DNA of 64,000 nucleotides, from sequence record JX128257. One strand, written 5' to 3'. A program made the position numbers and the translations under genes. Below are positions 8,888 through 44,863 of this stretch, one piece after another; position 1 is the stretch's first letter, and each line of letters opens with the position of its first letter. The notes under the pieces were generated by a model. It did not search any database and had not been told where the DNA came from. It saw only the letters and a program-made list of their open reading frames with translations. This DNA is from Escherichia phage ECML-4.

Positions 8888-9229
8888 TTATGGCCTCCTC
8901 ATCCATTCTAATATTGGGATGCCTACAAACCCTTTATGCCAGCGGTGGGGTTTATGGCCTCTGTTGTGATCCAACAAACAAGTATCTGGAGGAACACTGA
9001 AATGGATACCATCGATATCGTAATAATTCCCGTCGATAAGAGTATACACATGCCCTTCAATCTGGCTGTAATGAATCTCCGCTTGCGGATAAACGTGTTT
9101 GAGAACCAGGGCGACTTGATAGCACTTCCCGTTCTTTCCCACATACTCAACATCCACCTGTTGTGGGAAAATGTCCTTGATCAGATTTATCAATATGGTG
9201 ATATCATTCACTACAACAGATGGTTTCAT
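8888..9229 (-). CDS. hypothetical protein
   Basis: 113 aa ORF, His-rich C-terminus. Confidence 0.35.
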   Translation of the reverse strand: MKPSVVVNDITILINLIKDIFPQQVDVEYVGKNGKCYQVALVLKHVYPQAEIHYSQIEGHVYTLIDGNYYDIDGIHFSVPPDTCLLDHNRGHKPHRWHKGFVGIPILEWMRRP

Positions 9230-9242
9230 CTTCTCATCTCAC

Positions 9243-9905
9243 CTATGATAACTCATAGCGATGGCGGGTACATGCAGGGCAATTACAGTCTTTTCTCAAA
9301 ATTGGCATTTCACACCACGTCATCAAACCATGTATTGGAGACATATGATGATAAAACCATGATTTTTTGAGACTAATCAAAGGATATAAAATTTCAATTG
9401 GCCTTTCCCCGTCTCTTGTCATCATATTGTATCCTTCGATGACCTTATTGAAAGCTGGGATCCAGTGGATCGCGTCGTCCCCGTTGACATATGCCAATAT
9501 GTATGTGGGAGGCAAACTCCGGCCTTTAAATTGTGTGTTTAATAACCATATCGGGGCTTGTGCTAAACACGCACGAAACCCGCCGTCCGGCACGTGAATG
9601 CTACTAATCGGTTCTTGGTGATGAGTCCAACGATGCATAAGAAGCGGAGCATTCTTGTTGATCCAATTATAAATTTTATTTCGCGCCCAATTCTCACGTT
9701 TGGATTTGAAATTATTATTTTCAAGATGGCAATACACAGTATGAACCGAATAACCTTTCGATAATAACCAAACCAACATGTATGTGCTATCCACGCCGCC
9801 TGACCAAAACAATGTCACTTCTTGATTATTTTCCGGCAAAGGTGCATCCCCTTGAAGGACACGGTACACAAATTCACAATCAGATACAGAGACAGCGATT
9901 TCCAT
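9243..9905 (-). CDS. PP-loop ATP pyrophosphatase, QueC-like
   Basis: SGGVDST PP-loop; C-terminal C-x8-C-x-C-x2-C cluster resembling the QueC zinc site; 220 aa. Confidence 0.5.
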   Translation of the reverse strand: MEIAVSVSDCEFVYRVLQGDAPLPENNQEVTLFWSGGVDSTYMLVWLLSKGYSVHTVYCHLENNNFKSKRENWARNKIYNWINKNAPLLMHRWTHHQEPISSIHVPDGGFRACLAQAPIWLLNTQFKGRSLPPTYILAYVNGDDAIHWIPAFNKVIEGYNMMTRDGERPIEILYPLISLKKSWFYHHMSPIHGLMTWCEMPILRKDCNCPACTRHRYELS

Positions 9906-11297: not shown

Positions 11298-11634
11298 CGG
11301 TTTCCCCCGCTTTCTCTAAAAGAAGTTTCAAAGGATATGTCCCACAAGCGGTGGCATATTCAACTCTGAAATATGAATTATCGTTCATGGCGAAATTGCG
11401 ATGAGGAAAATATTCACCATCATCAAAACCACCCATCCCTCCACCGACGCGATATTGTTTCAATTCTACTTCGCCACCGTAACGCAGTTGGGCGTAGAGA
11501 CCGATAGGAGCGCGAACATAATGCTCCAACCACACCCAATTACCGTCATGTAGACGGGTGGGTAAAAACGCAAACCGTACCTTGGGATGAAGAACGGCTT
11601 TAGCCAACATTTCTTCCGTCACTTCAGATTTCAT
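11290..11634 (-). CDS. hypothetical protein
   Basis: 114 aa ORF overlapping neighbours by 8 and 4 nt. Confidence 0.35.
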   Translation of the reverse strand: MKSEVTEEMLAKAVLHPKVRFAFLPTRLHDGNWVWLEHYVRAPIGLYAQLRYGGEVELKQYRVGGGMGGFDDGEYFPHRNFAMNDNSYFRVEYATACGTYPLKLLLEKAGETDV

Positions 11635-12236
11635 CCGATGCTTTCCTCTTCGATGACGTCTTCTTCATTAGGAACAACCGAGATCCCAAAGTCGATCATT
11701 TGAGAGAGTTCTTGTAAATCCTTTTCGAATCCATCCCCTTCCCGAATATAGAATACTGGGACCACGCGACGGCGAGTATCTTCAAAGATGGTTTCGGCGA
11801 TTTTGTTAATCTGGCCCACCACATGTGTGAGATTCAAGCCACCAATACCACAACCGATGGCGGGCAAACCGACATAGACAGTTTCATCAGCTTTGGCTTC
11901 AACGATATCATGAATTTGTTCAAACATGATCTGGACTGAGCTAATGATAGATGGCATGCGAGCATTGGGACCTGGGTAAAATTGAGTATACAAATTGAAT
12001 CCCCAGACACCAGTGTCATGATCAAACGCATAGGACATGTTTCCCAAGCGCTGTTCCGGACCACGTTCATCTAATTGGTCGGCGCGGTAAATCTCTGGGA
12101 AATTCAATCGAACGTGATTGGCGATACCCGCGCCCATTACAGACCAACAATTTGCGCCGTGAGCAAAGGCATTGATAAGATTGAAACTCGTGGCGGCTTT
12201 TAATAAATCGCCATTTGTGATAATATAAGTGGTCAT
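11631..12236 (-). CDS. macro domain protein (ADP-ribose binding/hydrolase)
   Basis: INAFAHGANCWSVMGAGIANHV matches the macrodomain N-x6-GGG-V-x2-AI signature; start moved to the ATG at 12236 forming an ATGA overlap with the upstream stop. Confidence 0.6.
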   Translation of the reverse strand: MTTYIITNGDLLKAATSFNLINAFAHGANCWSVMGAGIANHVRLNFPEIYRADQLDERGPEQRLGNMSYAFDHDTGVWGFNLYTQFYPGPNARMPSIISSVQIMFEQIHDIVEAKADETVYVGLPAIGCGIGGLNLTHVVGQINKIAETIFEDTRRRVVPVFYIREGDGFEKDLQELSQMIDFGISVVPNEEDVIEEESIG

Positions 12237-12469
12237 GCGTAACGTCTCCATTGTATAATTTCGTTGTCGACACAACTGACCTGAATGATACACATATTCT
12301 GGCGATGGTCGGTGAGTGTCATAATAAAACTGTCTGGTTGTGACATGACACGATTAACAGATATCCCGCGCGACATCAAACGAAAGCAAATTTCTTGATA
12401 CAAACGTTGCATATATCCTGAAACAGAAGCCGATTCATATGCGCGTTCAAATTCGTATAATTCGTTCAT
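12233..12469 (-). CDS. hypothetical protein
   Basis: 78 aa ORF, 4-nt overlaps on both sides. Confidence 0.35.
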   Translation of the reverse strand: MNELYEFERAYESASVSGYMQRLYQEICFRLMSRGISVNRVMSQPDSFIMTLTDHRQNMCIIQVSCVDNEIIQWRRYA

Positions 12470-14861: not shown

Positions 14862-16772
14862 TTATTCTCCCTCTGTTTCAAACAAACAAACATCACTAAA
14901 CCAGGTTTTGCGGTAATCGGCGGCCTCATCACCGAAGCCGTTCTTCAGTGATTCTTTGTAGTTGTCATCCAACGTGACCGTCGTAGTATACGCATCCAGA
15001 TTGTTTAGAATACGTTTGAAGTCTTCAGTGCTGTTACCACCAAGACCTTTCAGATATTTCTTCTTCGTAATCTTCTTGGCGTCAGGGGTTTTTAAAAATT
15101 CTTCATATTCCGTATTGCTCATAAACTCATACATCGTTTTACCACACCAAATACGCATGTATGGTGTGCGCAGGAGTTTCAGCCTACCCTGACGGACGTA
15201 CTCCGGCCAATATGTGCAATACAGAGTAATCAACAAACCACGGATGTGAATGCCATCATCGTCCGCATCGGTGGCTACAACAGTCTGTGGGTAGCGGGTG
15301 ATATCAATCGGCTGACCTGGGACTGCGCCTCCATGAATCGTGCAAAGATTCTTGAACTCCTCATTATTCATTACCTTTGATCGCGGATTGTTTAAACAAT
15401 TGATGAATTTACCACGCAAAGGGAATAATCCAATCTTTTTAGTATCACGGGCGTTCAGGATAGGATTGGACGCGCTGTCACCTTCAGTCAATAACAGAGA
15501 GCACCCACTGCGATCACCACGGGCGGTCGCCGGATAATACTTCTCTATCTCACGATAATCCCGTTTGCTAATATCCTTCTTGGCCTTTTCAAATTCAGCA
15601 TCATCTTGGTCGTTACGCAAGGCGGCCAATTCTTTGCTCAGGCCAGCTGTGACAAACTCCAGAGCCTTCCGGATTAGTTTATCGCTGGGTTTATAGGTCG
15701 TACCAAACTGGCTAACAGGAGTCGTCATACGCTCCTTGGTTTGGCTATCAAAACGAGGGTTGTTGATATCAGCCGAGATGAAAAGCATCATATGGTTTTT
15801 AATCATAGAAGGCTTCAGATCAGTCTTAAACTTTTTCACCAATTGTGGGCGAATCGCATTCACGATCTGGTCAGCAACGTAATCCACATGAGGACCACCG
15901 ATATGGGTGGCAATGCTGTTCACATATGATGCATGAATAAACGTCCCTTGTGAAGGAGCAACAGCAACAGACCACTCCTCTGTTTCATCAACAGAAGAAC
16001 CTTGGCAAAAGTAATCCACAAAATGGCCAAATCGGTCGATACGGATTTGTTTCCCGTTCAGAATGACTTTCAGGCGCGGGTTACAAGCAGCCACTTCAAA
16101 TGCGCGGCGATAGATCATCAACAAGTTATTTTGATCAAGACCTTTGACACCCAGACGCGCATAATCAGGTATCCATGCGATAGACGTCCCAGGGGCATTC
16201 AAATTACTGATCACCGGATTAGAACGTTTGCTCAAATTGTCTTCAAATGTTTGAGTGTAAGACTTCTTCCCGTCATTTGTCGTGACACGGAACCATTTTG
16301 AAAATACGTTGACCAGTGAAGCCCCTTCACCGTTCTGACCACCTGATTTTTTGTTATTGTATTCTTCATCGTCGTCGTTGAAGTTGCTACCCGCATAGAG
16401 GGAGCCAAATAACATTTCAGGGAGCCATTCCTTTGTCTCCCCGTGTTTAACAACCGGAATACCCCCATTGTCAGCCACGATGATCTGACCATTCATAGGA
16501 GAAACGGTAATGGTGATTTCTGTGAGGCTTTTACCTTCTGGCGTTTTGCTATGATCTACAGAGTTGGTGATAATTTCATCAAACTGTTTAATCAATGCAG
16601 GAGAATATTCAAAATTATCCTTGAATATAACTTGATCTTTTATTGGATCATATATCCAAGTTGTTCCAACGGCTGAACGGATACTACCCAGATGACGCTC
16701 TGGGCGAAGAAGGATATGCTCTATGTGAGTGAGCTTTTTGTATTTTCGTTCAATATCAATCATATTAGACAT
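14862..16772 (-). CDS. DNA topoisomerase II large subunit (GyrB-like GHKL ATPase + toprim; T4 gp39/gp60-like)
   Basis: LRPERHLGS, GHKL N-box EIITNSVDH, G1 box DNGGIPV; 636 aa. Confidence 0.85.
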   Translation of the reverse strand: MSNMIDIERKYKKLTHIEHILLRPERHLGSIRSAVGTTWIYDPIKDQVIFKDNFEYSPALIKQFDEIITNSVDHSKTPEGKSLTEITITVSPMNGQIIVADNGGIPVVKHGETKEWLPEMLFGSLYAGSNFNDDDEEYNNKKSGGQNGEGASLVNVFSKWFRVTTNDGKKSYTQTFEDNLSKRSNPVISNLNAPGTSIAWIPDYARLGVKGLDQNNLLMIYRRAFEVAACNPRLKVILNGKQIRIDRFGHFVDYFCQGSSVDETEEWSVAVAPSQGTFIHASYVNSIATHIGGPHVDYVADQIVNAIRPQLVKKFKTDLKPSMIKNHMMLFISADINNPRFDSQTKERMTTPVSQFGTTYKPSDKLIRKALEFVTAGLSKELAALRNDQDDAEFEKAKKDISKRDYREIEKYYPATARGDRSGCSLLLTEGDSASNPILNARDTKKIGLFPLRGKFINCLNNPRSKVMNNEEFKNLCTIHGGAVPGQPIDITRYPQTVVATDADDDGIHIRGLLITLYCTYWPEYVRQGRLKLLRTPYMRIWCGKTMYEFMSNTEYEEFLKTPDAKKITKKKYLKGLGGNSTEDFKRILNNLDAYTTTVTLDDNYKESLKNGFGDEAADYRKTWFSDVCLFETEGE

Positions 16773-16819
16773 CGGCCTATCCCGTCAATGGTAAACACAA
16801 GATTATGTATGGGGTCGGC

Positions 16820-17398
16820 TTATAGACCAAATTTACCGCGCCATTTCTGTACTTTGTGTTCAACAGCGCGTTCTACGTCAGGGATCGTACTCTTGAGATT
16901 GCAATGGCAGTCACAAGCCAGTTTAGCCGTGTGGCGAATAACACCGTTGATCAGATCAAAGATTTGGTCATTTGAACGCTGCGGCTGGTTCAGAAGTCGG
17001 GTGATGCGGCCTTTGTAATGATTGATCCTAGCCAACTGCCTATCCACCGGATCTACACCACCACAGAACCAGTAATCTTCCAAGGTATGCTCTGATAAGT
17101 TTGTTGTGTGGTTGGCCTGAGCCAACGCATAAATGACAGAATCGAATATTTCTTCTTTTGTCATGGAACCATGTTGTTGGATATGCTGATATTCACAAAC
17201 ATACAACAAATCCAGAGCCGAGATGATAACATCCGCCACTTCCCCATTCAAAGGTTCCGACGCAGCAATCCCGTAGAACACGTCCGATAGTTCACATGTT
17301 TCTTCTACAAGTTTACAGAACACAAATACAGATGGACGATCCGGTTCGTTCTGGCTGAGTTCATAAGATGTTTCTAAGATGCGACGAATAAATTTCAT
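16820..17398 (-). CDS. MazG-like nucleoside triphosphate pyrophosphohydrolase (T4 gp56 dCTPase-like)
   Basis: EETCELSD ... EVADVIISALDL resembles the MazG E-x2-E ... E-x2-D metal-binding helices. Confidence 0.55.
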   Translation of the reverse strand: MKFIRRILETSYELSQNEPDRPSVFVFCKLVEETCELSDVFYGIAASEPLNGEVADVIISALDLLYVCEYQHIQQHGSMTKEEIFDSVIYALAQANHTTNLSEHTLEDYWFCGGVDPVDRQLARINHYKGRITRLLNQPQRSNDQIFDLINGVIRHTAKLACDCHCNLKSTIPDVERAVEHKVQKWRGKFGL

Positions 17399-17895
17399 TT
17401 CAAATATCCTTCTAAGCGAAAGCGGTTGATATGTTGTATGATAAAGTCCATAGAGTTTTGAAAACTATATTTCCCCTGATGCTCATATGCATGAATAAGG
17501 GGAAGTCGGCTGTGAGCCAATTGGAATCGCAGTCTTGGTGGCATAGACAACAACTTGGCTGATGTCGCCGCGATAATACGAGAACGCAATATGGGGGAAT
17601 CTGAATCAACGAGAGGGATTTGTATTTTACCCAAATCCAATCCATACTTCTTGGCTTCATAACCACTCAGATGCCGAAGAGCATCATCGCGATATTTTAT
17701 CCAGTACCAATAACCCTCGATAGAATCGAAGTGCCCGTCCAGGGTTTCAATCGGATGATGGGTAAAATGCGATAGGAATTTTCCCAGATCAGTCCGGCTT
17801 TGGCTGTATATGTTGTAATGATTGACACCCTCAGTTATAGGCGTCATCGCTTTCTTTGAAACATTCAGTAATATAAGCATGATATAGAGTCTCAA
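17395..17895 (-). CDS. NADAR (YbiA-like) domain protein
   Basis: VNHYNIYS ... GKFLSHF ... PIETLDGHFDSIEGYWYWIKY ... ATSAKL aligns by eye to YbiA INFYS ... GDFSNFA ... PIKVDG ... TSEHYFQAQKF ... ATAPAKL; true start may be the internal Met (MTPITEG). Confidence 0.5.
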   Translation of the reverse strand: MRLYIMLILLNVSKKAMTPITEGVNHYNIYSQSRTDLGKFLSHFTHHPIETLDGHFDSIEGYWYWIKYRDDALRHLSGYEAKKYGLDLGKIQIPLVDSDSPILRSRIIAATSAKLLSMPPRLRFQLAHSRLPLIHAYEHQGKYSFQNSMDFIIQHINRFRLEGYLK

Positions 17896-18159
17896 ATCAA
17901 AATTGCTGTGTGTAATCAGGTCAAATCTTTTTATATGCTTTCAGGGTACAGATAATAGAGACGCCGCCAAATAGAACGAGCAATATGAATCGTTCCATCC
18001 TAAAATCAGGAAGGGAAAGCAGTCCCACAAGGCTGTCTAAAGCAATCATGAACGTTACTCCAGTCAGCATGCCCAACTTAAAGGAGTTGGAACCTCTTTT
18101 GCAACGTAGCATAAATCACCTCCGATTCAAATGGGGAGTTTCCTCCCCATACAAATTAT

Positions 18160-18663
18160 CTAGCCCAGAAACACTACTAAAGTCAAATTTGTAAAGCAGC
18201 TGCGATTATCTTTTAACATTTGATGGGCAGCGGAAAGGCGCTTAGCATCATGCAGAGTATCTGAAAACACGATGATATTGGCCTTGTCGATTTTGGTCCC
18301 CATAAAATTGGCCATGGTCGACGTTTTCTCTTTTCGATCAAATTTTTCATACTGCTCCCCTGTGGTTACATTTTTCGATTGAGTGAAAAACGTATCACGT
18401 TCACGAGCAGTGTGAAATACACCGAATACGTCGATTTCATTTTCAATTTGGAATTTTTCAGAAAGGAGTTTCTTTAACGCCGCAGTGTGACCAGTCTGGC
18501 GAAGCATTCGATAGTAGAGCATGCTCCCACTGCCTGCGGGATCAAGGTCGTAACGAATCCGGCGGTCTTTTTGAATTTCATACGCATCTAGAACCAATTG
18601 TTGTAGCATTTCAATATGCGCATTAAGGGATACTTCTACTTTTCGTTTAACTAAAGATTTCAT
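18160..18663 (-). CDS. hypothetical protein
   Basis: 167 aa ORF. Confidence 0.4.
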   Translation of the reverse strand: MKSLVKRKVEVSLNAHIEMLQQLVLDAYEIQKDRRIRYDLDPAGSGSMLYYRMLRQTGHTAALKKLLSEKFQIENEIDVFGVFHTARERDTFFTQSKNVTTGEQYEKFDRKEKTSTMANFMGTKIDKANIIVFSDTLHDAKRLSAAHQMLKDNRSCFTNLTLVVFLG

Positions 18664-18729
18664 TGTTGGAGCCTCGAATTTACGTTCCGCTCATGGGGAA
18701 CATAAAAATTATACCCTTAGACACAACAA

Positions 18730-18751
18730 TGAAAAAGAGGCCGAAGCCTCT
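18730..18751 (-). terminator. rho-independent terminator
   Basis: minus strand AGAGGC-TTCG-GCCTCT followed by TTTTT. Confidence 0.6.
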
Positions 18752-18973
18752 TTAATCGTCATATTTGCCTGTCCTGAAATTCCATTTCCTGGCCTTGGAT
18801 AGGTCAAGATCTTTGAATATATTACCGAAGATCTTTTTAAACCCTGACTCTTCTTCAAGATCTTTCGGTCTCTTGACAGGTTCTTGAACCATACCGCCTT
18901 CGGGTTTCCCCACATCAGCGGTAGTGGTGGCCGGAGCAGAAGAGTCTTCGAGGTAATCCTGGAAGCTCTTCAT
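18752..18973 (-). CDS. hypothetical small protein
   Basis: 73 aa ORF followed by a strong terminator hairpin. Confidence 0.35.
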   Translation of the reverse strand: MKSFQDYLEDSSAPATTTADVGKPEGGMVQEPVKRPKDLEEESGFKKIFGNIFKDLDLSKARKWNFRTGKYDD

Positions 18974-18976
18974 AGA

Positions 18977-19798
18977 TTACACCACAGCCAGTTCACAACG
19001 GGCGGAAGTTACAGAATGGCCGTCCGCGTCTTCTACAACACACCAGTACTCACCCTCAGAAGCAGCGGTGACAGCGTGGTTGACCAGAGACGCAGTCGCT
19101 GCTGTTGGGTTAACACCAGCATCAATCACCACACCTTCGCCGCCAGGGGTGTCAGAGTAATACCACGCATAAGAGTACGGCGTGGTGCCGCCAGCAGCAA
19201 CGATAGTGAATGTCGCATCAGCGCCGTCGGCCACGTCCTGAGAAGCAGCCAGATCGGTTGTCAACGACAACAGTCCTGCGATGGTAATGACGGTAGAATC
19301 GGTGTGATTTCCTTCTACAGTAACACCATAAACTGTAACAGAACCAGACTGAAGCAGTTTGAATTTACCACCGCCGATATGGATCGCCTTCGTCAGGTCG
19401 CCAGAATACCAGTTCACTCCTTGATATGTTGCGTTCACAGGAGCAACAGTGGCCAGCAATTCAACGATTTGGCCTATTTCCCCGCTGGCCGTAGCCGGAG
19501 TAATGGTCAGACCTGTGGTAAGAACAGCAGTCGGATCATGGATTTCATAAGAAACCTGGAAACCTACTGGCTTGGTCGGATCAACTTTGGTGACACCGTC
19601 CGCTTGCAGATTACTTTTGGTCAGCAACGCATCAAGACCTTTACATTCGGTCAGGATCTCATCAGGATCTTGATTTAGGCTGGTTTTTTGCCAACCCTTT
19701 GCAACACCCGTCACGACATGATTGCGTTCGGTTTCCGGTTTGTTGCGGACAACTTCCGGCGCGACTAATACTGTGATTGTTGGCATGGTTTCCTCCAC
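18977..19798 (-). CDS. Ig-like domain protein
   Basis: Thr/Val/Gly-rich beta-strand repeats and C-terminal YWCVVEDADGHSVTSARCELAV resembling Ig-like/Big_2 domains. Confidence 0.4.
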   Translation of the reverse strand: MEETMPTITVLVAPEVVRNKPETERNHVVTGVAKGWQKTSLNQDPDEILTECKGLDALLTKSNLQADGVTKVDPTKPVGFQVSYEIHDPTAVLTTGLTITPATASGEIGQIVELLATVAPVNATYQGVNWYSGDLTKAIHIGGGKFKLLQSGSVTVYGVTVEGNHTDSTVITIAGLLSLTTDLAASQDVADGADATFTIVAAGGTTPYSYAWYYSDTPGGEGVVIDAGVNPTAATASLVNHAVTAASEGEYWCVVEDADGHSVTSARCELAVV

Positions 19799-20157
19799 TC
19801 ATCCAAATCGTTGTTCAGAGCCATCATCAGCTCGTTATCTGGTTCGTATGAACCGGAACATAAATCATCTCTCCAAACTCCTAACGTCAACAGCGCTGCC
19901 TTTAGACGAGGATGTTGGTTCTTATCCGTTTTCAACACCAGCATTCGACACACAGCTTCAGTTTCGAAAGTATTGAAAAGAATAATCAATTGATTGATAA
20001 GCACACGAGGACTTTTCCCTGGCACAAATCTCTTCAATGATTGATTAATTAGCGAAATTCGCTGAATGTCTACCATCAAATCATCCCGTGAGACACCAGC
20101 AGTGATATAGTGTCTCAGGGCATATTCCATCAAATTGCTTTCGTCAACGATAGCCAT
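19765..20157 (-). CDS. hypothetical protein
   Basis: 130 aa ORF. Confidence 0.35.
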   Translation of the reverse strand: MAIVDESNLMEYALRHYITAGVSRDDLMVDIQRISLINQSLKRFVPGKSPRVLINQLIILFNTFETEAVCRMLVLKTDKNQHPRLKAALLTLGVWRDDLCSGSYEPDNELMMALNNDLDEWRKPCQQSQY

Positions 20158-30025: not shown

Positions 30026-31261
30026 TCATCGTTTCAACAAAGACATGAGGTTTACACTGGTCGACTTCGGATTGTCATCTATCTTCCGGACGGGCATTTT
30101 CAGATTAGTGTAAACCTCAGATGGTTCCCAACGCGTACCCTGCTGCAGGTGCCAAATATGAAGAGGAACACCCGTCTCAAAGAACACAGGCATCTTCCAC
30201 TTCTGGACGCCAGGAACGTGCCCTGCAGGAGCTTTTTCGCATAACAAGGTATCTGGTAGCCAGAGGGAACGGGCTTCCCATAATGCCTTACAGGAGTACT
30301 CAGGCCAGATGCGTTCCATGTAGTCGATCTCATCCCAAGTACGCTCAGCATCCCACCCGATGTAACGAGTGTTTTTCAGACGGAAGAATTTCTTAAGCCA
30401 ACAAGCACCGGAAGTCTCAAAGTTCAAACGATTGATGAACGTGATGTGACCAAACTCGGCGACACAATCTTTGAATGCCTGTTCAAGATCAGCCTCAAGG
30501 ATGTCGCATTCTTCATCGGTGATAGGACAGCCGTTGATCTTTTTCTTTCCGTGCTTGGTCACCCAGTCGTCACGGTTTGACAAGAATGCCGCGCCGTTGC
30601 GGTTGGACTCACTACCATCACGGTCACGCAACATGAACCCAGGGACGTCGATCTGATACATGTTGCCGAATACCATGTTCAGGGCTTCCAGGAAGTTCCA
30701 GGCGCTCAGGCGACCGAAGTATTTCCATCCCATAGCCGTGTCCCATAGCTTAACGAATTGATCACTTTGCAGTTTAGTCTCCAACAACGGACGGAAAGCA
30801 TCCATCTGAGTACGACCAGCTAGCCAATCAATGTAGGACTGAACACACGGGATCATCTTCGATTTGCGATAGCGGCAATCAGTATCGAATCGCATACGCT
30901 CGAAGTTCAGGTTATACCAATCACAGAATCGCTTGAACTCTTGTGGTGACTGAGGCGGTACAGGAAACTCACTATAAATCGTCCATGGGCCAATCCCATT
31001 ATAACAACAGCCCCAAAGGAACGCCATCCAGATCTTGCGCTCGATCTTCTCAAGCTGTGTAATGCCTTCAGTGACTTCAATCGCATAATCCATCAGACGA
31101 ACTTGTTGGTTGTGTTCTTCCGTATACGACAGCGCCTCCACCCATGCTTTGAGCAGATACATCCGATTCTCTGGCTTACGATAATCGATTGACAAATCAA
31201 TTGGGTACTTCCATTCAGCCGGAGGCGTATAACCTGTCGGCATTTTAGATAGATGCGTCAT
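30026..31261 (-). CDS. hypothetical enzyme-sized protein (candidate DNA-modification enzyme)
   Basis: 411 aa, Trp/Cys-rich, no motif recognised; lies beside the P-loop kinase and HAD genes. Confidence 0.3.
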   Translation of the reverse strand: MTHLSKMPTGYTPPAEWKYPIDLSIDYRKPENRMYLLKAWVEALSYTEEHNQQVRLMDYAIEVTEGITQLEKIERKIWMAFLWGCCYNGIGPWTIYSEFPVPPQSPQEFKRFCDWYNLNFERMRFDTDCRYRKSKMIPCVQSYIDWLAGRTQMDAFRPLLETKLQSDQFVKLWDTAMGWKYFGRLSAWNFLEALNMVFGNMYQIDVPGFMLRDRDGSESNRNGAAFLSNRDDWVTKHGKKKINGCPITDEECDILEADLEQAFKDCVAEFGHITFINRLNFETSGACWLKKFFRLKNTRYIGWDAERTWDEIDYMERIWPEYSCKALWEARSLWLPDTLLCEKAPAGHVPGVQKWKMPVFFETGVPLHIWHLQQGTRWEPSEVYTNLKMPVRKIDDNPKSTSVNLMSLLKR

Positions 31262-31803: not shown

Positions 31804-32718
31804 CTACGCCTTACGCATTAGCCCCAGAAGGGACACGGATGAGGTCTTTGGTTCTTCCTTGGCGACGGCCTTGTTTTTAGTTTTGGATGCCTTCTGCGGC
31901 TTCTCAGGCACTCTGTGAGCCAAAGGATCCTGACCGCCGACTTCACGCGTCATCGGATTGGTTTCGCAATAGCCGTAGAAGTCTTTCGACATCAGATTGT
32001 TAGCGCGGCAAACTGTGCCAAGCTGATGATAGATAGCATTACCCACCACCCACAACGGGGCGTCGAACGGCAACATAGCCAATTCGCTATCATTCCCAGT
32101 CTTGAATTCTTGGGTGTTCGTAGCCGTTTGGTGGTACAAAACGTCTTGCCCACTGTAATCATCCACGGCAACATTCCAGCCAAGCGCCAGCATTTCAGCC
32201 TTGGACTTCTCGAACTCCTTGGAGTAAGATTCGTTGCGCGACCAGCCGGAATCCCCCGCTTCTTTACCAGAGCGTCCACGGATGCGGGCATCGTACTGAT
32301 AGCGGTCTGGATATGCAAAGTACAGCAGCGCCAAAGAATCAATCGGATAGTTCTTGAACATCCATTCAGGACGCCACTTGTCCGACAGCATCAGGGGTTC
32401 GCCCTCACACACCAGGGTATATCCCTGAGCCAGCCAACCCTTGACGAGGTCGCGAGCAATATCCCCAGAGCCTGTGGCAGCATGAATGGCGTCCATAGAG
32501 GTCCAAGACGCCAGGCCGGATTTATTGGACACTGTGTATTGGCCGACGAAGATTAACTTCAGCTCTTCAAATTTCAGGCCGAAGGGGCGCGTCTTATCCC
32601 CAACAGTGTACGACAATTCAGTCGGCTTCAGCTTAGTGCGGAGCCACTCGATGAACTGTACGACACGAGTGCCTTTACCCGTGCCGCTGGTTCCTTTGAT
32701 TACGATGATCTTTGCCAT
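31804..32718 (-). CDS. P-loop nucleotide kinase-like protein
   Basis: N-terminal IVIKGTSGTGKGT, an NMP-kinase-style G-x-G-K-G-T P-loop; 304 aa. Confidence 0.5.
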   Translation of the reverse strand: MAKIIVIKGTSGTGKGTRVVQFIEWLRTKLKPTELSYTVGDKTRPFGLKFEELKLIFVGQYTVSNKSGLASWTSMDAIHAATGSGDIARDLVKGWLAQGYTLVCEGEPLMLSDKWRPEWMFKNYPIDSLALLYFAYPDRYQYDARIRGRSGKEAGDSGWSRNESYSKEFEKSKAEMLALGWNVAVDDYSGQDVLYHQTATNTQEFKTGNDSELAMLPFDAPLWVVGNAIYHQLGTVCRANNLMSKDFYGYCETNPMTREVGGQDPLAHRVPEKPQKASKTKNKAVAKEEPKTSSVSLLGLMRKA

Positions 32719-39545: not shown

Positions 39546-40004
39546 TTATTTCCCATCCCAAAAGTCGTCTTCATCGTCTACTTCATCAAACGCAGAATCC
39601 AATTCTGCGTCAGAGTACTCTGGTAGACGACCATTCTGTTTCAGATATTCAATTTCGTCATCTTCCAATTGAAGATCCGTTGCTATAAACAGCGCTCCGG
39701 TCTCTTCATCATGTTCAATGCTATAAGACGTATATTCAGAACCCTGAACTGTAATGATGATAGATGTTGGATCTTCTGGATCCACGTGAGCTTCAAACGG
39801 GATACCGTCAATTGGGGCGTCTTCTAAGAATGTTGCAAGGGCTACGGCAGCGCGGACAACATCCGTACCCTGTACCGATGCATAAATTTCTTCTGCGCCC
39901 GTTTCCCCGCGCTCAAAGAATTCAATCGTAGTTCCGTCTTGAACCCCAGTCCAGATAGGCATATCTGCTGGTGTATCGGCTTCAAATAATTTTGAAATTG
40001 GCAT
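39546..40004 (-). CDS. highly acidic protein
   Basis: 152 aa, very Asp/Glu-rich with few Lys/Arg. Confidence 0.45.
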   Translation of the reverse strand: MPISKLFEADTPADMPIWTGVQDGTTIEFFERGETGAEEIYASVQGTDVVRAAVALATFLEDAPIDGIPFEAHVDPEDPTSIIITVQGSEYTSYSIEHDEETGALFIATDLQLEDDEIEYLKQNGRLPEYSDAELDSAFDEVDDEDDFWDGK

Positions 40005-40039: not shown

Positions 40040-40489
40040 TTAGGCTTCTCTCTTCGCCAGCCCTGGTTTGAATACCACCATTTCTTCTACGTTATTGGCA
40101 CTCATAGAGGCTATGGAATCGAATCCTTTATTGATAAGTTCCTTCACATTATCGTGAATCTTACCAGGTTCTATCCCCAACTCACGCATTTTGTTTTCCC
40201 AAACAGAAACGTTATTAGAATCTATTACCAGAGTCTTCTTGGCCTTAACACGAAATGCCATGACAACAGGTTCACCAGATTGACGATAGCGAACGGCGTT
40301 TTCCGCGTAGATCTGCGCTTTTTCTGGATCCCCTGTCAGGTAAAATCCAGCACCCATCGTACCAGAGTCAGTCTGGCCAAATTTTTCAAAATCAAAGACG
40401 TCGAATTCAACATTCGACCCATGATATAAAACAATATCCGTAAAATCGGGCAATGTTGATTCACGATAGAATTCTAGGAAGGTTTTCAT
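40040..40489 (-). CDS. ADP-ribosyltransferase-fold protein (PARP-like H-Y-E class candidate)
   Basis: LYHGSN (H-G-S), GAGFYLTGD (G-x-G-x-Y-F/L), IYAEN, later NNVEEMVVF resembling the PARP catalytic-Glu strand; 149 aa. Confidence 0.4.
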   Translation of the reverse strand: MKTFLEFYRESTLPDFTDIVLYHGSNVEFDVFDFEKFGQTDSGTMGAGFYLTGDPEKAQIYAENAVRYRQSGEPVVMAFRVKAKKTLVIDSNNVSVWENKMRELGIEPGKIHDNVKELINKGFDSIASMSANNVEEMVVFKPGLAKREA

Positions 40490-40528: not shown

Positions 40529-41722
40529 TCAATCAGGGGTAAACTCGTTCACAGGAACTTGTTCCGGCATAGACAATTCGGGGCATGCTGCCTTCATTGG
40601 CTCAATATACGGCTTGCTACCAACAATCCAGAACAGAGCGTTTTCGTTGAGCAGTTCTGGCTTATGCTGTTGGATCCAGGTCATGACCTTGCCTTCATAG
40701 CGAGGATGCAGCTCAATATCACCCCACTGATAATCCATCAGGTCATTATAGCGAACCCAATTCGTTGTATGCAAATCCCAATGGTGTACTGCAAAGCGTG
40801 GGAGCGTTATCTCCGGCTCTCCCTTCTCGCGGATACCCATCAGGAGGCCAGCCAGCGAAACGCTCTTAGAGGCATGCTGAAGATCCTTCTTACCATACAC
40901 ATAATCTGGGTTGTCGTGATAGCAACGAGTGAAATCCGTTATGTGCGGAAGATTAGCTTGTTTTCCAATAATACGCAAACGGCTTTCAATAAAGTCCAGA
41001 CGGTTGGGACCAATCCCGATCAGATATACATTTTTCAGATTTGGTTTCGGGTGCATTGCCAGCCCTGTCAAAATGCTGGTACAAGAATTACATGAACCAG
41101 CAGGAATGATCAGATCTGTGATATGGTCCGGAATGTTAGCAACCTGCTCGCCGCCCAGCATATGAAATCCTGCAATCCTCTCCGGAGAATGCAACGTATG
41201 ATCCAGAGTGATCCCATACTCTAGATAATATGCTTTTGGATTCTGCTGCTCAATCAATTTCTTGCAGCGCGGCTGGATAGTGCTGTTGTAACCCGAACCG
41301 ACAAAGTTGAATTCGCTGCCGAACCAGGCGCTCATCTTCACCATGTCATGGTTCATACACGTGGTGGGTTTGGTAGCGCCCAGGACTGTAGTTGTCTTGC
41401 CGCCGAAATGCCGTGAGACTGCCGTCGCCATAGGGGACTGCGGACTACCAACGACTGTACCATGGATAAGGTCTGGGGAGCCTCCGGCCTTTAAATGCTC
41501 AACCATCAGCCAGATGGCCTGACGAAGTTTACTGCCGTTGATGCCCTGCTTGCCATCTGTATAGTTGGACAGCGGCGCGAAGTAATCTTCACGCTTGAAC
41601 CAGACCTGTTGATTGGTTTCAGGGTTGGCAACGAGTTCACACGGGGTGTGCTTGTAGAGGTAGTCTTCCCAGTGGACCAGGTTGCGGTCGAGGGAAAGTG
41701 TATCGAAGATGGACTTGTTCAT
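40529..41722 (-). CDS. PLP-dependent enzyme, fold type II (ACC-deaminase/D-cysteine-desulfhydrase-like)
   Basis: GINGSKLRQAIWL resembles the G-N-K-x-R-K-L PLP-lysine motif; Gly-rich loop VGSGYNST; 397 aa. Confidence 0.5.
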   Translation of the reverse strand: MNKSIFDTLSLDRNLVHWEDYLYKHTPCELVANPETNQQVWFKREDYFAPLSNYTDGKQGINGSKLRQAIWLMVEHLKAGGSPDLIHGTVVGSPQSPMATAVSRHFGGKTTTVLGATKPTTCMNHDMVKMSAWFGSEFNFVGSGYNSTIQPRCKKLIEQQNPKAYYLEYGITLDHTLHSPERIAGFHMLGGEQVANIPDHITDLIIPAGSCNSCTSILTGLAMHPKPNLKNVYLIGIGPNRLDFIESRLRIIGKQANLPHITDFTRCYHDNPDYVYGKKDLQHASKSVSLAGLLMGIREKGEPEITLPRFAVHHWDLHTTNWVRYNDLMDYQWGDIELHPRYEGKVMTWIQQHKPELLNENALFWIVGSKPYIEPMKAACPELSMPEQVPVNEFTPD

Positions 41723-43599: not shown

Positions 43600-43675
43600 T
43601 GGTTGCTTCAACTGGATTCGAACCAGTGACCTCTCCCTTATCAGGGGAACGCTCTACCTACTGAGCTATGAAGCA
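43600..43675 (-). tRNA. tRNA-Ile (anticodon GAT)
   Basis: hand-folded cloverleaf: acceptor TGCTTCA/TGAAGCA, D stem GCTC/GAGC, anticodon stem TTCCC/GGGAG with loop CTGATAA, T arm ACTGG-TTCGAAT-CCAGT, CCA encoded. Confidence 0.8.
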
Positions 43676-43678
43676 ATT

Positions 43679-43767
43679 TGGCGGAAGGTGAAGGATTCGA
43701 ACCTTCGGGGGCTAAAAGCCCCACTCGATTAGCAGTCGAGTCCCTTAAACCTCTCGGGCAACCTTCC
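43679..43767 (-). tRNA. tRNA-Ser (anticodon GCT), type II
   Basis: acceptor GGAAGGT/ACCTTCC, anticodon stem CTCGA/TCGAG with loop CTGCTAA, long variable arm, T arm GAAGG-TTCGAAT-CCTTC, CCA encoded. Confidence 0.8.
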
Positions 43768-44052
43768 GTATACTGCGCCTCGGTCAAGAATTTTCCAAGC
43801 CATGACCTAAATCTGGGTTCTTGACCTGACCGAGCGTAATTTGGACGGGCTTCACACCCGATTGTGCATTTGATCTGCCGTAGCCCAACTCCCCGCGCCG
43901 AAGCGCCGATTGGTTAACTGGCACCAGTGCCTTCTGGTTCGATCTCCTGTAACTTTACAGGCTTTGCGCCCGACCATTTCTGGAAGTTGAGGCATCGTTC
44001 CCGATGTGGAGTCCCCTCATTTTACACAGCTGGCTGCAACGCTTACTGTGTT

Positions 44053-44136
44053 TGGTGTGAGTGGATGGATTCGAACCACCGCGCTGTTACGGGGAGATTT
44101 ACAGTCTCCTGCATTCGACCGCTCTGCCACACTCAC
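44053..44136 (-). tRNA. tRNA-Tyr (anticodon GTA), type II
   Basis: acceptor GTGAGTG/CACTCAC, anticodon stem GGAGA/TCTCC with loop CTGTAAA, 12-nt variable region, T arm GGTGG-TTCGAAT-CCATC, CCA encoded. Confidence 0.75.
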
Positions 44137-44392
44137 ATTTGGTCTACCACCACGTGCTGGGCCACGCTCGAGGACATCGGCCATCCTTCCTCAGCTAATC
44201 CACGCGGCGGTAGATTTAGATCAGAGTGTACGGTGTAGCATTCCGCAGGGGTGCACCTACTGTAGCCCTTTCACTCTGAAATTGTATGAAGTAGGTCTCA
44301 CTCCCCTGGGTATCTGTATCCTGCAGCCTTACATTGGCAGCTATCGCGCGATTCGCACTTCCGAAGGCGCTTCGAGATACTCTACTTCAATT

Positions 44393-44468
44393 TGGCGACG
44401 ATGGCAGGACTTGAACCTGCGACATATGGATTAACAGTCCACCGTTCTACCGACTGAACTACATCGTC
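44393..44468 (-). tRNA. tRNA-Asn (anticodon GTT)
   Basis: acceptor GACGATG/CATCGTC, D stem GTTC/GAAC, anticodon stem GTGGA/TCCAT with loop CTGTTAA, T arm GCAGG-TTCAAGT-CCTGC, CCA encoded. Confidence 0.8.
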
Positions 44469-44469
44469 A

Positions 44470-44670
44470 TTATCCGTGCTTGTTTGCTTCAATTGCCCTT
44501 AATTGAGCATCAGCGTCAGCTTTGGTGTCATGTGTCCCAAGAACCTTCGTCTTGGTGTGGTCAAGGACAACCCACTTGTCGCCTCGCTTTTCAACAAACT
44601 CAACAATCTCTTTGTTGTCGGTAGCGAGGCCATCCCACTCAGCAAGAAACTCACCGAACGTTTTCATCAT
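44470..44670 (-). CDS. small hypothetical protein embedded in tRNA cluster (66 aa)
   Basis: track ORF begins with TTG; more likely start is the ATG-ATG pair at 44670 preceded by GGTGAG. Confidence 0.35.
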   Translation of the reverse strand: MMKTFGEFLAEWDGLATDNKEIVEFVEKRGDKWVVLDHTKTKVLGTHDTKADADAQLRAIEANKHG

Positions 44671-44787
44671 ACTCACCAATTGTTTATTGAACAACTGGTT
44701 TATTTAGGTGCTCCCGAGGCGGTATTTTAATCCCGCGATCCCATCTCGCCTGCCGTAGACCAGAGCATGCTGACAGTCCAACATATT

Positions 44788-44863
44788 TGGTGACCCTGGC
44801 TGGACTTGAACCAGCGACCAATCGATTATGAGTCGACTGCTCTAACCACTGAGCTACGGGGCC
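44788..44863 (-). tRNA. tRNA-Met (anticodon CAT)
   Basis: acceptor GGCCCCG/CAGGGTC (one C-A mismatch), D stem GCTC/GAGC, anticodon stem GTCGA/TCGAT with loop CTCATAA, T arm GCTGG-TTCAAGT-CCAGC, CCA encoded. Confidence 0.7.

Follow-up and report, generated by a model that had tools for sequence, protein, structure and literature searches.

A divergent His-type NADAR protein of Escherichia phage ECML-4, related to T4 gp30.3 and a candidate eraser of guanine-linked ADP-ribose

Phage-encoded NADAR proteins (AdfN) and macrodomains (AdfM) erase the marks that DarT1 and DarT2 leave on phage DNA (PMC11825919, PMC13309987). Guanine-linked ADP-ribose is stripped, and DarTG1 neutralised, by T4 gp30.3 and by two further phage NADARs (PMC11825919, PMC11125620), and neutralisation of DarT1 has been shown for the phage NADARs AdfN-Bas60 and AdfN-Bas32 (PMC11825919). 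Here we analyse a gene on the minus strand (17395..17880) of a 64,000-nucleotide stretch of Escherichia phage ECML-4 DNA (JX128257; the whole stretch is called the window below), whose product we refer to as the NADAR-like protein. We put the probability that this product belongs to the His-type phage branch of NADARs above 0.9. By profile alignment its family is sister to the gp30.3 'phage NADAR' branch and is neither YbiA-type nor DarG1-type.

The gene had been proposed, on a sequence-only reading, as an open reading frame (ORF) at 17395-17895, and these coordinates proved exact: the ORF list gives 17395..17895 on the minus strand, 166 amino acids from a TTG codon at 17895, from which all residue numbers used here are counted, to a TGA stop at 17397-17395. 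The TTG and an ATG at 17847 (150 amino acids) are alternative in-frame starts. The ATG at 17880, which yields a coding sequence of 161 amino acids, is the likeliest start, because 161 amino acids is the length called for nearly all homologues and a short N-terminal extension is kept in frame throughout homologues of 54-97% identity. On nucleotide identity the window belongs to a Kuttervirus phage (Ackermannviridae, Vi01-like): over region 16000-20000 it shares 99.3% identity with phages UTK0005, AR2819 and FrontPhageNews and 95.6% with Vi01.

An AlphaFold2 model computed from an 18-sequence alignment (predicted local distance difference test score, pLDDT, 91.8; predicted template modelling score, pTM, 0.85) comprises five short strands and seven helices, arranged as a helical core with a three-strand and a two-strand sheet. 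The NADAR fold, as published, has a helical core with two small flanking sheets, and the order of secondary-structure elements in the model agrees with that description (PMC11543638). When the model was compared with the PDB by Foldseek, the top three matches were all NADAR structures (template modelling scores of 0.62, 0.53 and 0.52), and every other match had a probability of 0.1 or less. Against BFVD, members of the family lead, followed by many viral proteins designated 'NADAR domain'. The predicted structure is a YbiA-like (NADAR) fold.

Searches with the single sequence and with a shallow profile gave little. The sole library match of the protein is PHROG phrog_652 (function unknown; E 2.6e-49), phmmer found no match among PDB sequences at E ≤ 10, and a profile of 18 Ackermannviridae sequences retrieved noise alone from the PDB and matched T4 gp30.3 alone weakly (24%). 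An exhaustive hidden Markov model (HMM) search of 1.84 billion representatives recovered 1,392 relatives at E ≤ 1e-3, a family that falls into about 1,400 clusters when grouped at 50% identity, and 147 diverse members of this set were used to build a family profile. Run against 177,635 PDB sequences, the 147-relative profile found the Phytophthora NADAR 8bau (E 5.6e-5) and YbiA 2b3w (E 0.0026), with the next best match at E ≥ 0.76. In hhalign comparisons the family scored 95% (E 3.6e-8) against YbiA alone and 84% against T4 gp30.3 alone; against a gp30.3 family alignment of 108 sequences (T4 gp30.3 plus 107 relatives) it reached 97.4% (E 1.2e-11), with 110-135 columns aligned across the whole domain. 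T4 gp30.3 was also the best non-self ORF for the family HMM. Among the 147 relatives, Pfam recognises Phage_30_3 (PF08010) in 15, weakly (best E 9.3e-5), and NADAR (PF08719) in six. Fold and homology are established by these comparisons.

A profile search had been set beforehand as the refuting test of the proposed NADAR/YbiA membership; it returned NADAR/YbiA and T4 gp30.3, and no unrelated family. Fold search, profile searches and the Pfam matches of some relatives all bear out placement in the superfamily. The original YbiA/NADAR label is right about the NADAR superfamily and wrong about the YbiA type: the protein lacks both the YbiA glutamate and the D-x2-W-G motif and is instead assigned to the His-type phage NADARs. 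The motifs from which that label had been drawn are all present. S58-I-E60-G-Y-W-Y-W-I-K67-Y68 and A110-T-S-A-K114-L read exactly as first noted and N28-I-Y30 is in place, whereas G38-K-F-L-S42-H-F44 and P48-I-E-T-L-D-G54 are each one residue longer than the G-x-F-S-x-F and P-I-x-h-D-G originally given. Motif positions are mostly invariant among 18 Ackermannviridae homologues, G23, N28, Y30, G38 and E60 are invariant among the 147 distant relatives, and alignments by HMMER and hhalign match the motif segments to those of YbiA and the Phytophthora NADAR. Because of this conservation and alignment, the motif matches are, at the level of sequence, not due to chance.

Phytophthora NADAR binds the distal ribose through E43 and E125 and the phosphates and adenine through K50, K75, G78, R79, W89, R93, D130 and W133, and the NADAR of E. 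coli C7 requires E88, K95 and D171 (PMC11543638, PMC11825919). Full activity of T4 AdfN requires E36 and K43 (PMC11825919), and phage NADARs carry a histidine at the site of the YbiA glutamate or DarG1 aspartate (PMC11543638, PMC11125620). In the NADAR-like protein, Glu60 (codon 17716..17718, minus strand) is the predicted catalytic glutamate, equivalent to Phytophthora E43, C7 E88 and T4 AdfN E36, a residue whose role in NADARs has been described (PMC11543638, PMC11825919); it is invariant in 147/147 relatives and 18/18 Ackermannviridae homologues. Seven residues further on, the spacing of all three reference proteins, lies Lys67 (17695..17697, minus strand), the predicted counterpart of the phosphate and adenine contact K50 of Phytophthora, K95 of C7 and K43 of T4, which is lysine in 16 of the 18 Ackermannviridae homologues. 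The Kuttervirus clade retains this lysine, lost by most of the wider family. Within the segment L-P-L-I-H-A-Y, where the last β-hairpin starts, His135 (17491..17493, minus strand) corresponds to T4 H123, Phytophthora E125 and C7 D171; histidine occupies the position in 144/147 relatives and 18/18 Ackermannviridae homologues. Alignment by hhalign with the gp30.3 family pairs E60, K67 and H135 with T4 E36, K43 and H123, positions held in that family by Glu (108/108), Lys (104/108) and His (108/108). The Glu, Lys and His are present and conserved on this evidence. K82 and G85 correspond to Phytophthora K75 and G78; over the W89 and R93 region the alignment is unreliable for this protein.

By tblastn of a phage collection, the gene occurs in 565 records, comprising Ackermannviridae and many jumbo phages that infect Erwinia, Vibrio, Serratia, Ralstonia and further hosts. 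Its annotation among the matches listed is nearly always hypothetical, since single-sequence searches come up empty. In two records, FrontPhageNews gp54 and Serratia phage Yaphecito, the gene is a 'putative N-glycosidase', a sign that a YbiA-like signal had been noticed by some annotators before. A full-text literature search linking NADAR or DarTG with Ackermannviridae or Kuttervirus returned nothing relevant, the phage NADAR list in Table S3 of PMC11825919 lying outside its reach. The family is viral and almost absent from cellular genomes: 185,579 species genomes yielded 18 loci, in arrays of small co-directional, phage-like ORFs. Two Pseudomonas megaplasmids of about 1 Mb (L015 and L016) encode members. 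No ADP-ribosyltransferase (ART) gene was found among the ten neighbouring proteins scanned at the bacterial loci. We rejected a role as a bacterial antitoxin next to DarT on the basis of the few loci, their phage-like arrays and the lack of an ART among those ten neighbours.

In relatives the domain is often fused to further domains. Among the 147, the partners are Macro (6), YAcAr/YpsA SLOG (10), the SLOG-type DNA_processg_A (9), DUF4326 (7), DUF488-N3a (5) and an Rv2179c-like exonuclease (2). Macro, SLOG, DUF4326 and DUF488 are classic NAD/ADP-ribose partners of NADAR, and such partners, in the network of de Souza and Aravind, reportedly gave NADAR its name. Examples of multidomain relatives are P0028, P0037, P0044, P0059 and P0063.

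By analogy with the AdfN proteins, we propose that the NADAR-like protein is a hydrolase that would take ADP-ribose off guanine in DarT1-modified phage DNA, a specific mechanism and role to which we assign a probability of about 0.55; catalysis, substrate and biological role are what we infer here. The ADP-ribose moiety would be held in a cleft of the helical core, with Lys67, Lys82 and the Gly85 backbone holding the diphosphate and adenine and with Glu60 and His135 flanking the distal ribose. The bond cleaved would be the N-glycosidic one that joins ribose C1'' to an exocyclic amine on the nucleobase, with N2 of guanine in single-stranded DNA as the likeliest target, and intact ADP-ribose would be released. 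Phage DNA modified by host DarT1-type ADP-ribosyltransferases would thus be cleaned and replication would continue, an AdfN-like form of counter-defence. The gene sits among replication and nucleotide-metabolism genes, and the same gene block holds topoisomerase II, rIIA/rIIB, DexA and dCMP deaminase genes.

Several observations weigh against this proposal or against the NADAR assignment beneath it. Identity to solved NADARs is merely 16-19%, and the protein has no match in Pfam at E ≤ 1 (PF08719 NADAR and PF08010 Phage_30_3 included), in NCBIfam at E ≤ 10 or in PADLOC at E ≤ 1 (DarG models included). Position 67 is G, S, L or T in the wider 147-relative family and is not conserved there. Leu86 occupies the position of the diphosphate-binding R79 of Phytophthora, a position for which the gp30.3 family shows no conservation either, and the D130/W133 (D-x2-W-G) motif is absent, as it is from T4 gp30.3. 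Five positions that hardly vary in the 147-relative family are changed in the Kuttervirus clade (N43H, R86L, F103L, Y136A and W151F). Spatial clustering of E60, K67 and H135 is deduced from alignment as its only basis. T4 AdfN requires a T-even-specific context to function fully and alone does not rescue DarT1 toxicity (PMC11825919, PMC11125620), so its behaviour is not automatically transferable to the NADAR-like protein. NADARs also reverse cytidine ADP-ribosylation (PMC12945103), and the target base may therefore be other than guanine.

An alternative that is unlikely but deserves weight takes the protein to be a NADAR-fold N-glycosidase acting, like YbiA, on a small molecule (a nucleotide, an NAD-derived metabolite or an ADP-ribose-containing immune signal), possibly with the enzyme encoded next door. 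Directly downstream lies a MazG-like nucleotide pyrophosphatase gene (16820..17398, minus strand; PHROG phrog_1247, E 6.5e-37; no Pfam match) whose ATG overlaps the stop of the NADAR-like gene in an ATGA junction. The two genes are probably translationally coupled because of this overlap, and their adjacency is annotated in many Ackermannviridae records. The overlap itself speaks for a small-molecule substrate, as do a NadR-like AAA_28 kinase gene that recurs beside distant relatives (beside or near the family member in 4/17 loci, the metagenome-assembled genome loci L014, L021, L023 and L026) and the name 'putative N-glycosidase' chosen by two GenBank annotators. Set against these points, the YbiA-defining Glu and D-x2-W-G are absent, the alignment is far better with the gp30.3 family, which is active on ADP-ribosylated DNA, and no riboflavin genes lie near the gene. 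Moreover, all NADAR types tested, YbiA included, hydrolyse guanine-ADP-ribose on DNA in vitro (PMC11125620). The other direct neighbour of the NADAR-like gene, a 63-amino-acid ORF, is hydrophobic in sequence and falls in PHROG phrog_4835 (function unknown). A promoter and terminator scan around the gene gave sites no commoner than expected by chance.

We also consider it doubtful, if conceivable, that the His-type clade has a substrate other than DarT1-modified guanine, whether another base (cytidine, or RNA), the product of the phage's own ART-PolyVal enzyme or an ADP-ribose-derived immune signal. On that reading, the fixed Kuttervirus changes N43H, R86L, Y136A and W151F may be signs of a retuned pocket, the phage being one whose thymidines are probably hypermodified. 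The ART-PolyVal/DUF3990 gene encodes 149 amino acids at 40040..40489 on the minus strand, about 22 kb from the NADAR-like gene. It matches Pfam PF18760 (E 9e-11; 43.1 bits, cutoff 31.2) and PF13151 (E 7e-8) and the PADLOC candidate-defence models PDC-M13A (E 2.5e-9) and PDC-M13B. It invites the quite unlikely reading that the NADAR-like protein is an eraser partner of this enzyme, limiting or reversing its marks on phage nucleic acid or proteins, rather than a countermeasure to a host toxin. ART, macro and NADAR genes do share one genome and are all widely conserved in Ackermannviridae, and ART-NADAR toxin-antitoxin pairs are known (DarT1-NADAR and YarT-YbiA; PMC11543638, PMC11125620). However, the ART gene lies in another gene block, its confinement to about 225 Ackermannviridae records contrasts with the 565 of the NADAR-like family, which include many jumbo phages without the ART, and the substrate of ART-PolyVal is unknown. 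Directly downstream of the ART gene is a very acidic 152-amino-acid ORF (39546..40004, minus strand) without a Pfam or PADLOC match, which could encode an inhibitor, chaperone or DNA mimic. We tried this ORF as the macro gene of the window and rejected it for want of a family match and for its unsuitable sequence.

It is improbable that the protein is a catalytically weakened NADAR fold that would bind ADP-ribose or ADP-ribosylated DNA but leave them unhydrolysed, acting as a reader or shield or depending on a phage partner. The five changed positions of the Kuttervirus clade and the missing R79-equivalent arginine would fit such a loss, and full T4 AdfN activity itself requires T-even-specific factors (PMC11825919). 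Yet the Glu-Lys-His set of active gp30.3-type enzymes is intact and conserved, and the clade substitutions are fixed (H43 and A136, for example, in 18/18), which points to a retuned rather than a decaying site. A spurious resemblance to NADAR by a protein of an unrelated family, for which the lack of any Pfam, NCBIfam, PADLOC or PDB match to the single sequence and the 18-sequence profile might argue, is very far-fetched and effectively refuted by three independent and agreeing lines: the fold, the profile searches (to sequence and to profile) and the domain partners of relatives. The AdfN-like hydrolase remains our preferred reading.

The NADAR-like gene had been described as standing alongside macro and ART genes. 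Both are in the window, but the macro gene is about 5 kb and the ART gene about 22 kb away and neither is adjacent; the three genes do not form one operon. The macro-domain gene (11631..12293, minus strand) is DarG/TARG1-like and lies downstream on the same strand. Its product matches, by phmmer, the DarG macrodomain 5m3i (E 3.6e-5), 7omu (E 2e-4) and 5m31 (E 0.002), as well as PADLOC DarG (E 1.7e-10), and falls in PHROG phrog_335, labelled 'phosphatase'. The macro gene is a candidate second ADP-ribose eraser. In a HMMER alignment its protein reads F-Y-P-G-P-N-A where DarG has F-P-T-K-K-H-W, and the asparagine of N-C-x-x-V-M-G-x-G-I-A is retained. The DarG segment is the one that we take to hold the TARG1/DarG-type lysine, which may be missing from the macro protein. 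The suggested pairing of macro and NADAR erasers in one phage is genuinely present but not special: T4-like phages carry macro Tk.4 together with gp30.3, and the macro family, Tk.4 among its members, occurs in 2,738 phage records. By analogy, the NADAR-like and DarG-like macro genes may between them address both DarT chemistries, which in other phages are dealt with by AdfN and AdfM separately (PMC11825919, PMC13309987).

Further modification genes lie elsewhere in the window, all on the minus strand. Thymidine-hypermodification genes occupy 30026-31261 and 31804-32718 (amino acid:DNA transferase PF18724, E 3e-58; 5-hydroxymethyldeoxyuridine DNA kinase PF18747, E 6e-169), and the phage DNA therefore probably contains modified thymidines, which may interact with the thymine-directed DarT2. 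A weak pyridoxal phosphate enzyme match (PALP, E 2e-7, under cutoff) is found at 40529-41722. A PP-loop ATPase-like protein and an adjoining YunG-like protein (9243-9905 and 8888-9229; weak QueC/ThiI N-terminal matches; PF24591, E 4e-44) are possibly involved in nucleotide or base modification. Five tRNA genes (Ile-GAT, Ser-GCT, Tyr-GTA, Asn-GTT and Met-CAT) cluster at 43600-44863, whereas the annotation of FrontPhageNews, which is 99% identical, lists other tRNAs (Met, Trp, Asn, Ser and Leu).

If our proposal is correct, the AdfN-type strategy reaches Ackermannviridae, which are widely used biocontrol and therapy phages for Salmonella, E. coli and Klebsiella, and many jumbo phages, and the Ackermannviridae and jumbo phages with the gene would be predicted to resist DarTG1-type defence. 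A large viral branch of NADAR escapes the Pfam, NCBIfam and PADLOC models tried, and the finding is useful for the annotation of phage genomes. Such a divergent enzyme is an aid to studying NADAR substrate specificity. The conceptual picture is unchanged and holds no surprise: this class of phage counter-defence genes is already known, and the present member is a divergent one.

Comparison with named systems sets the NADAR-like protein apart from cellular NADARs. E. coli YbiA (COG3236, a riboflavin-intermediate N-glycosidase; 2B3W) carries the last-strand Glu in L-V-E-x4-D-x2-W-G, where the NADAR-like protein has L-P-L-I-H-A-Y-E-H-Q-G-K, and the phage gene, unlike YbiA, has no riboflavin genes nearby. 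DarG1, the BC4488-type antitoxin of DarTG1 (G. lovleyi 8BAT, E. coli C7), uses a catalytic Asp (C7 D171) in place of His135, and the NADAR-like gene, unlike DarG1, has no adjacent DarT gene, ART-PolyVal being the sole ART gene found, and no PADLOC DarG match. Among phage proteins, AdfN-Bas60 and AdfN-Bas32 are, like the NADAR-like protein, orphan members of the NADAR superfamily with the same presumed removal of guanine-linked ADP-ribose. AdfN-Bas60 (Bas60_0111; MZ501100, phage PaulScherrer) is a canonical Glu-type NADAR with the segment F-V-E-A-S-P-Y-D-S-I-Y-G. Membership of the NADAR-like protein in the AdfN-Bas60 family was rejected, with hhalign at 5.6% and Bas60_0111 of the Glu type. Phage NADARs detectable with YbiA are a different group, present in 641 phage records, with no Ackermannviridae phage among the matches listed or the genera named.

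The closest described relative is T4 gp30.3 (AdfN-T4, PF08010). The two proteins differ in several respects: identity is about 20%, and the NADAR-like protein lacks a PF08010 match even at E ≤ 1. It has an aromatic run, Y-W-Y-W, after the Glu where gp30.3 has F-L-Q-x-L, a β-hairpin, H-A-Y-E-H-Q-G-K-Y-S, after the His and an extra N-terminal segment, D/E-G-x-x-H-x-N-x-Y-S, the last two of which gp30.3 does not share. Their host phages also differ, the NADAR-like family occurring in Ackermannviridae and jumbo phages and gp30.3 in Straboviridae. Both, however, are free-standing phage proteins of about 150-160 amino acids with a NADAR fold, predicted in the present case, and both genes stand among early and DNA-metabolism genes. 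They have the motifs L-S-N/H-F, D-G-x-F-x-S-x-E-G, A-K-x-x-G and L-x-H in common, and they share the same Glu-Lys-His set, in which His replaces the Glu or Asp of cellular NADARs.

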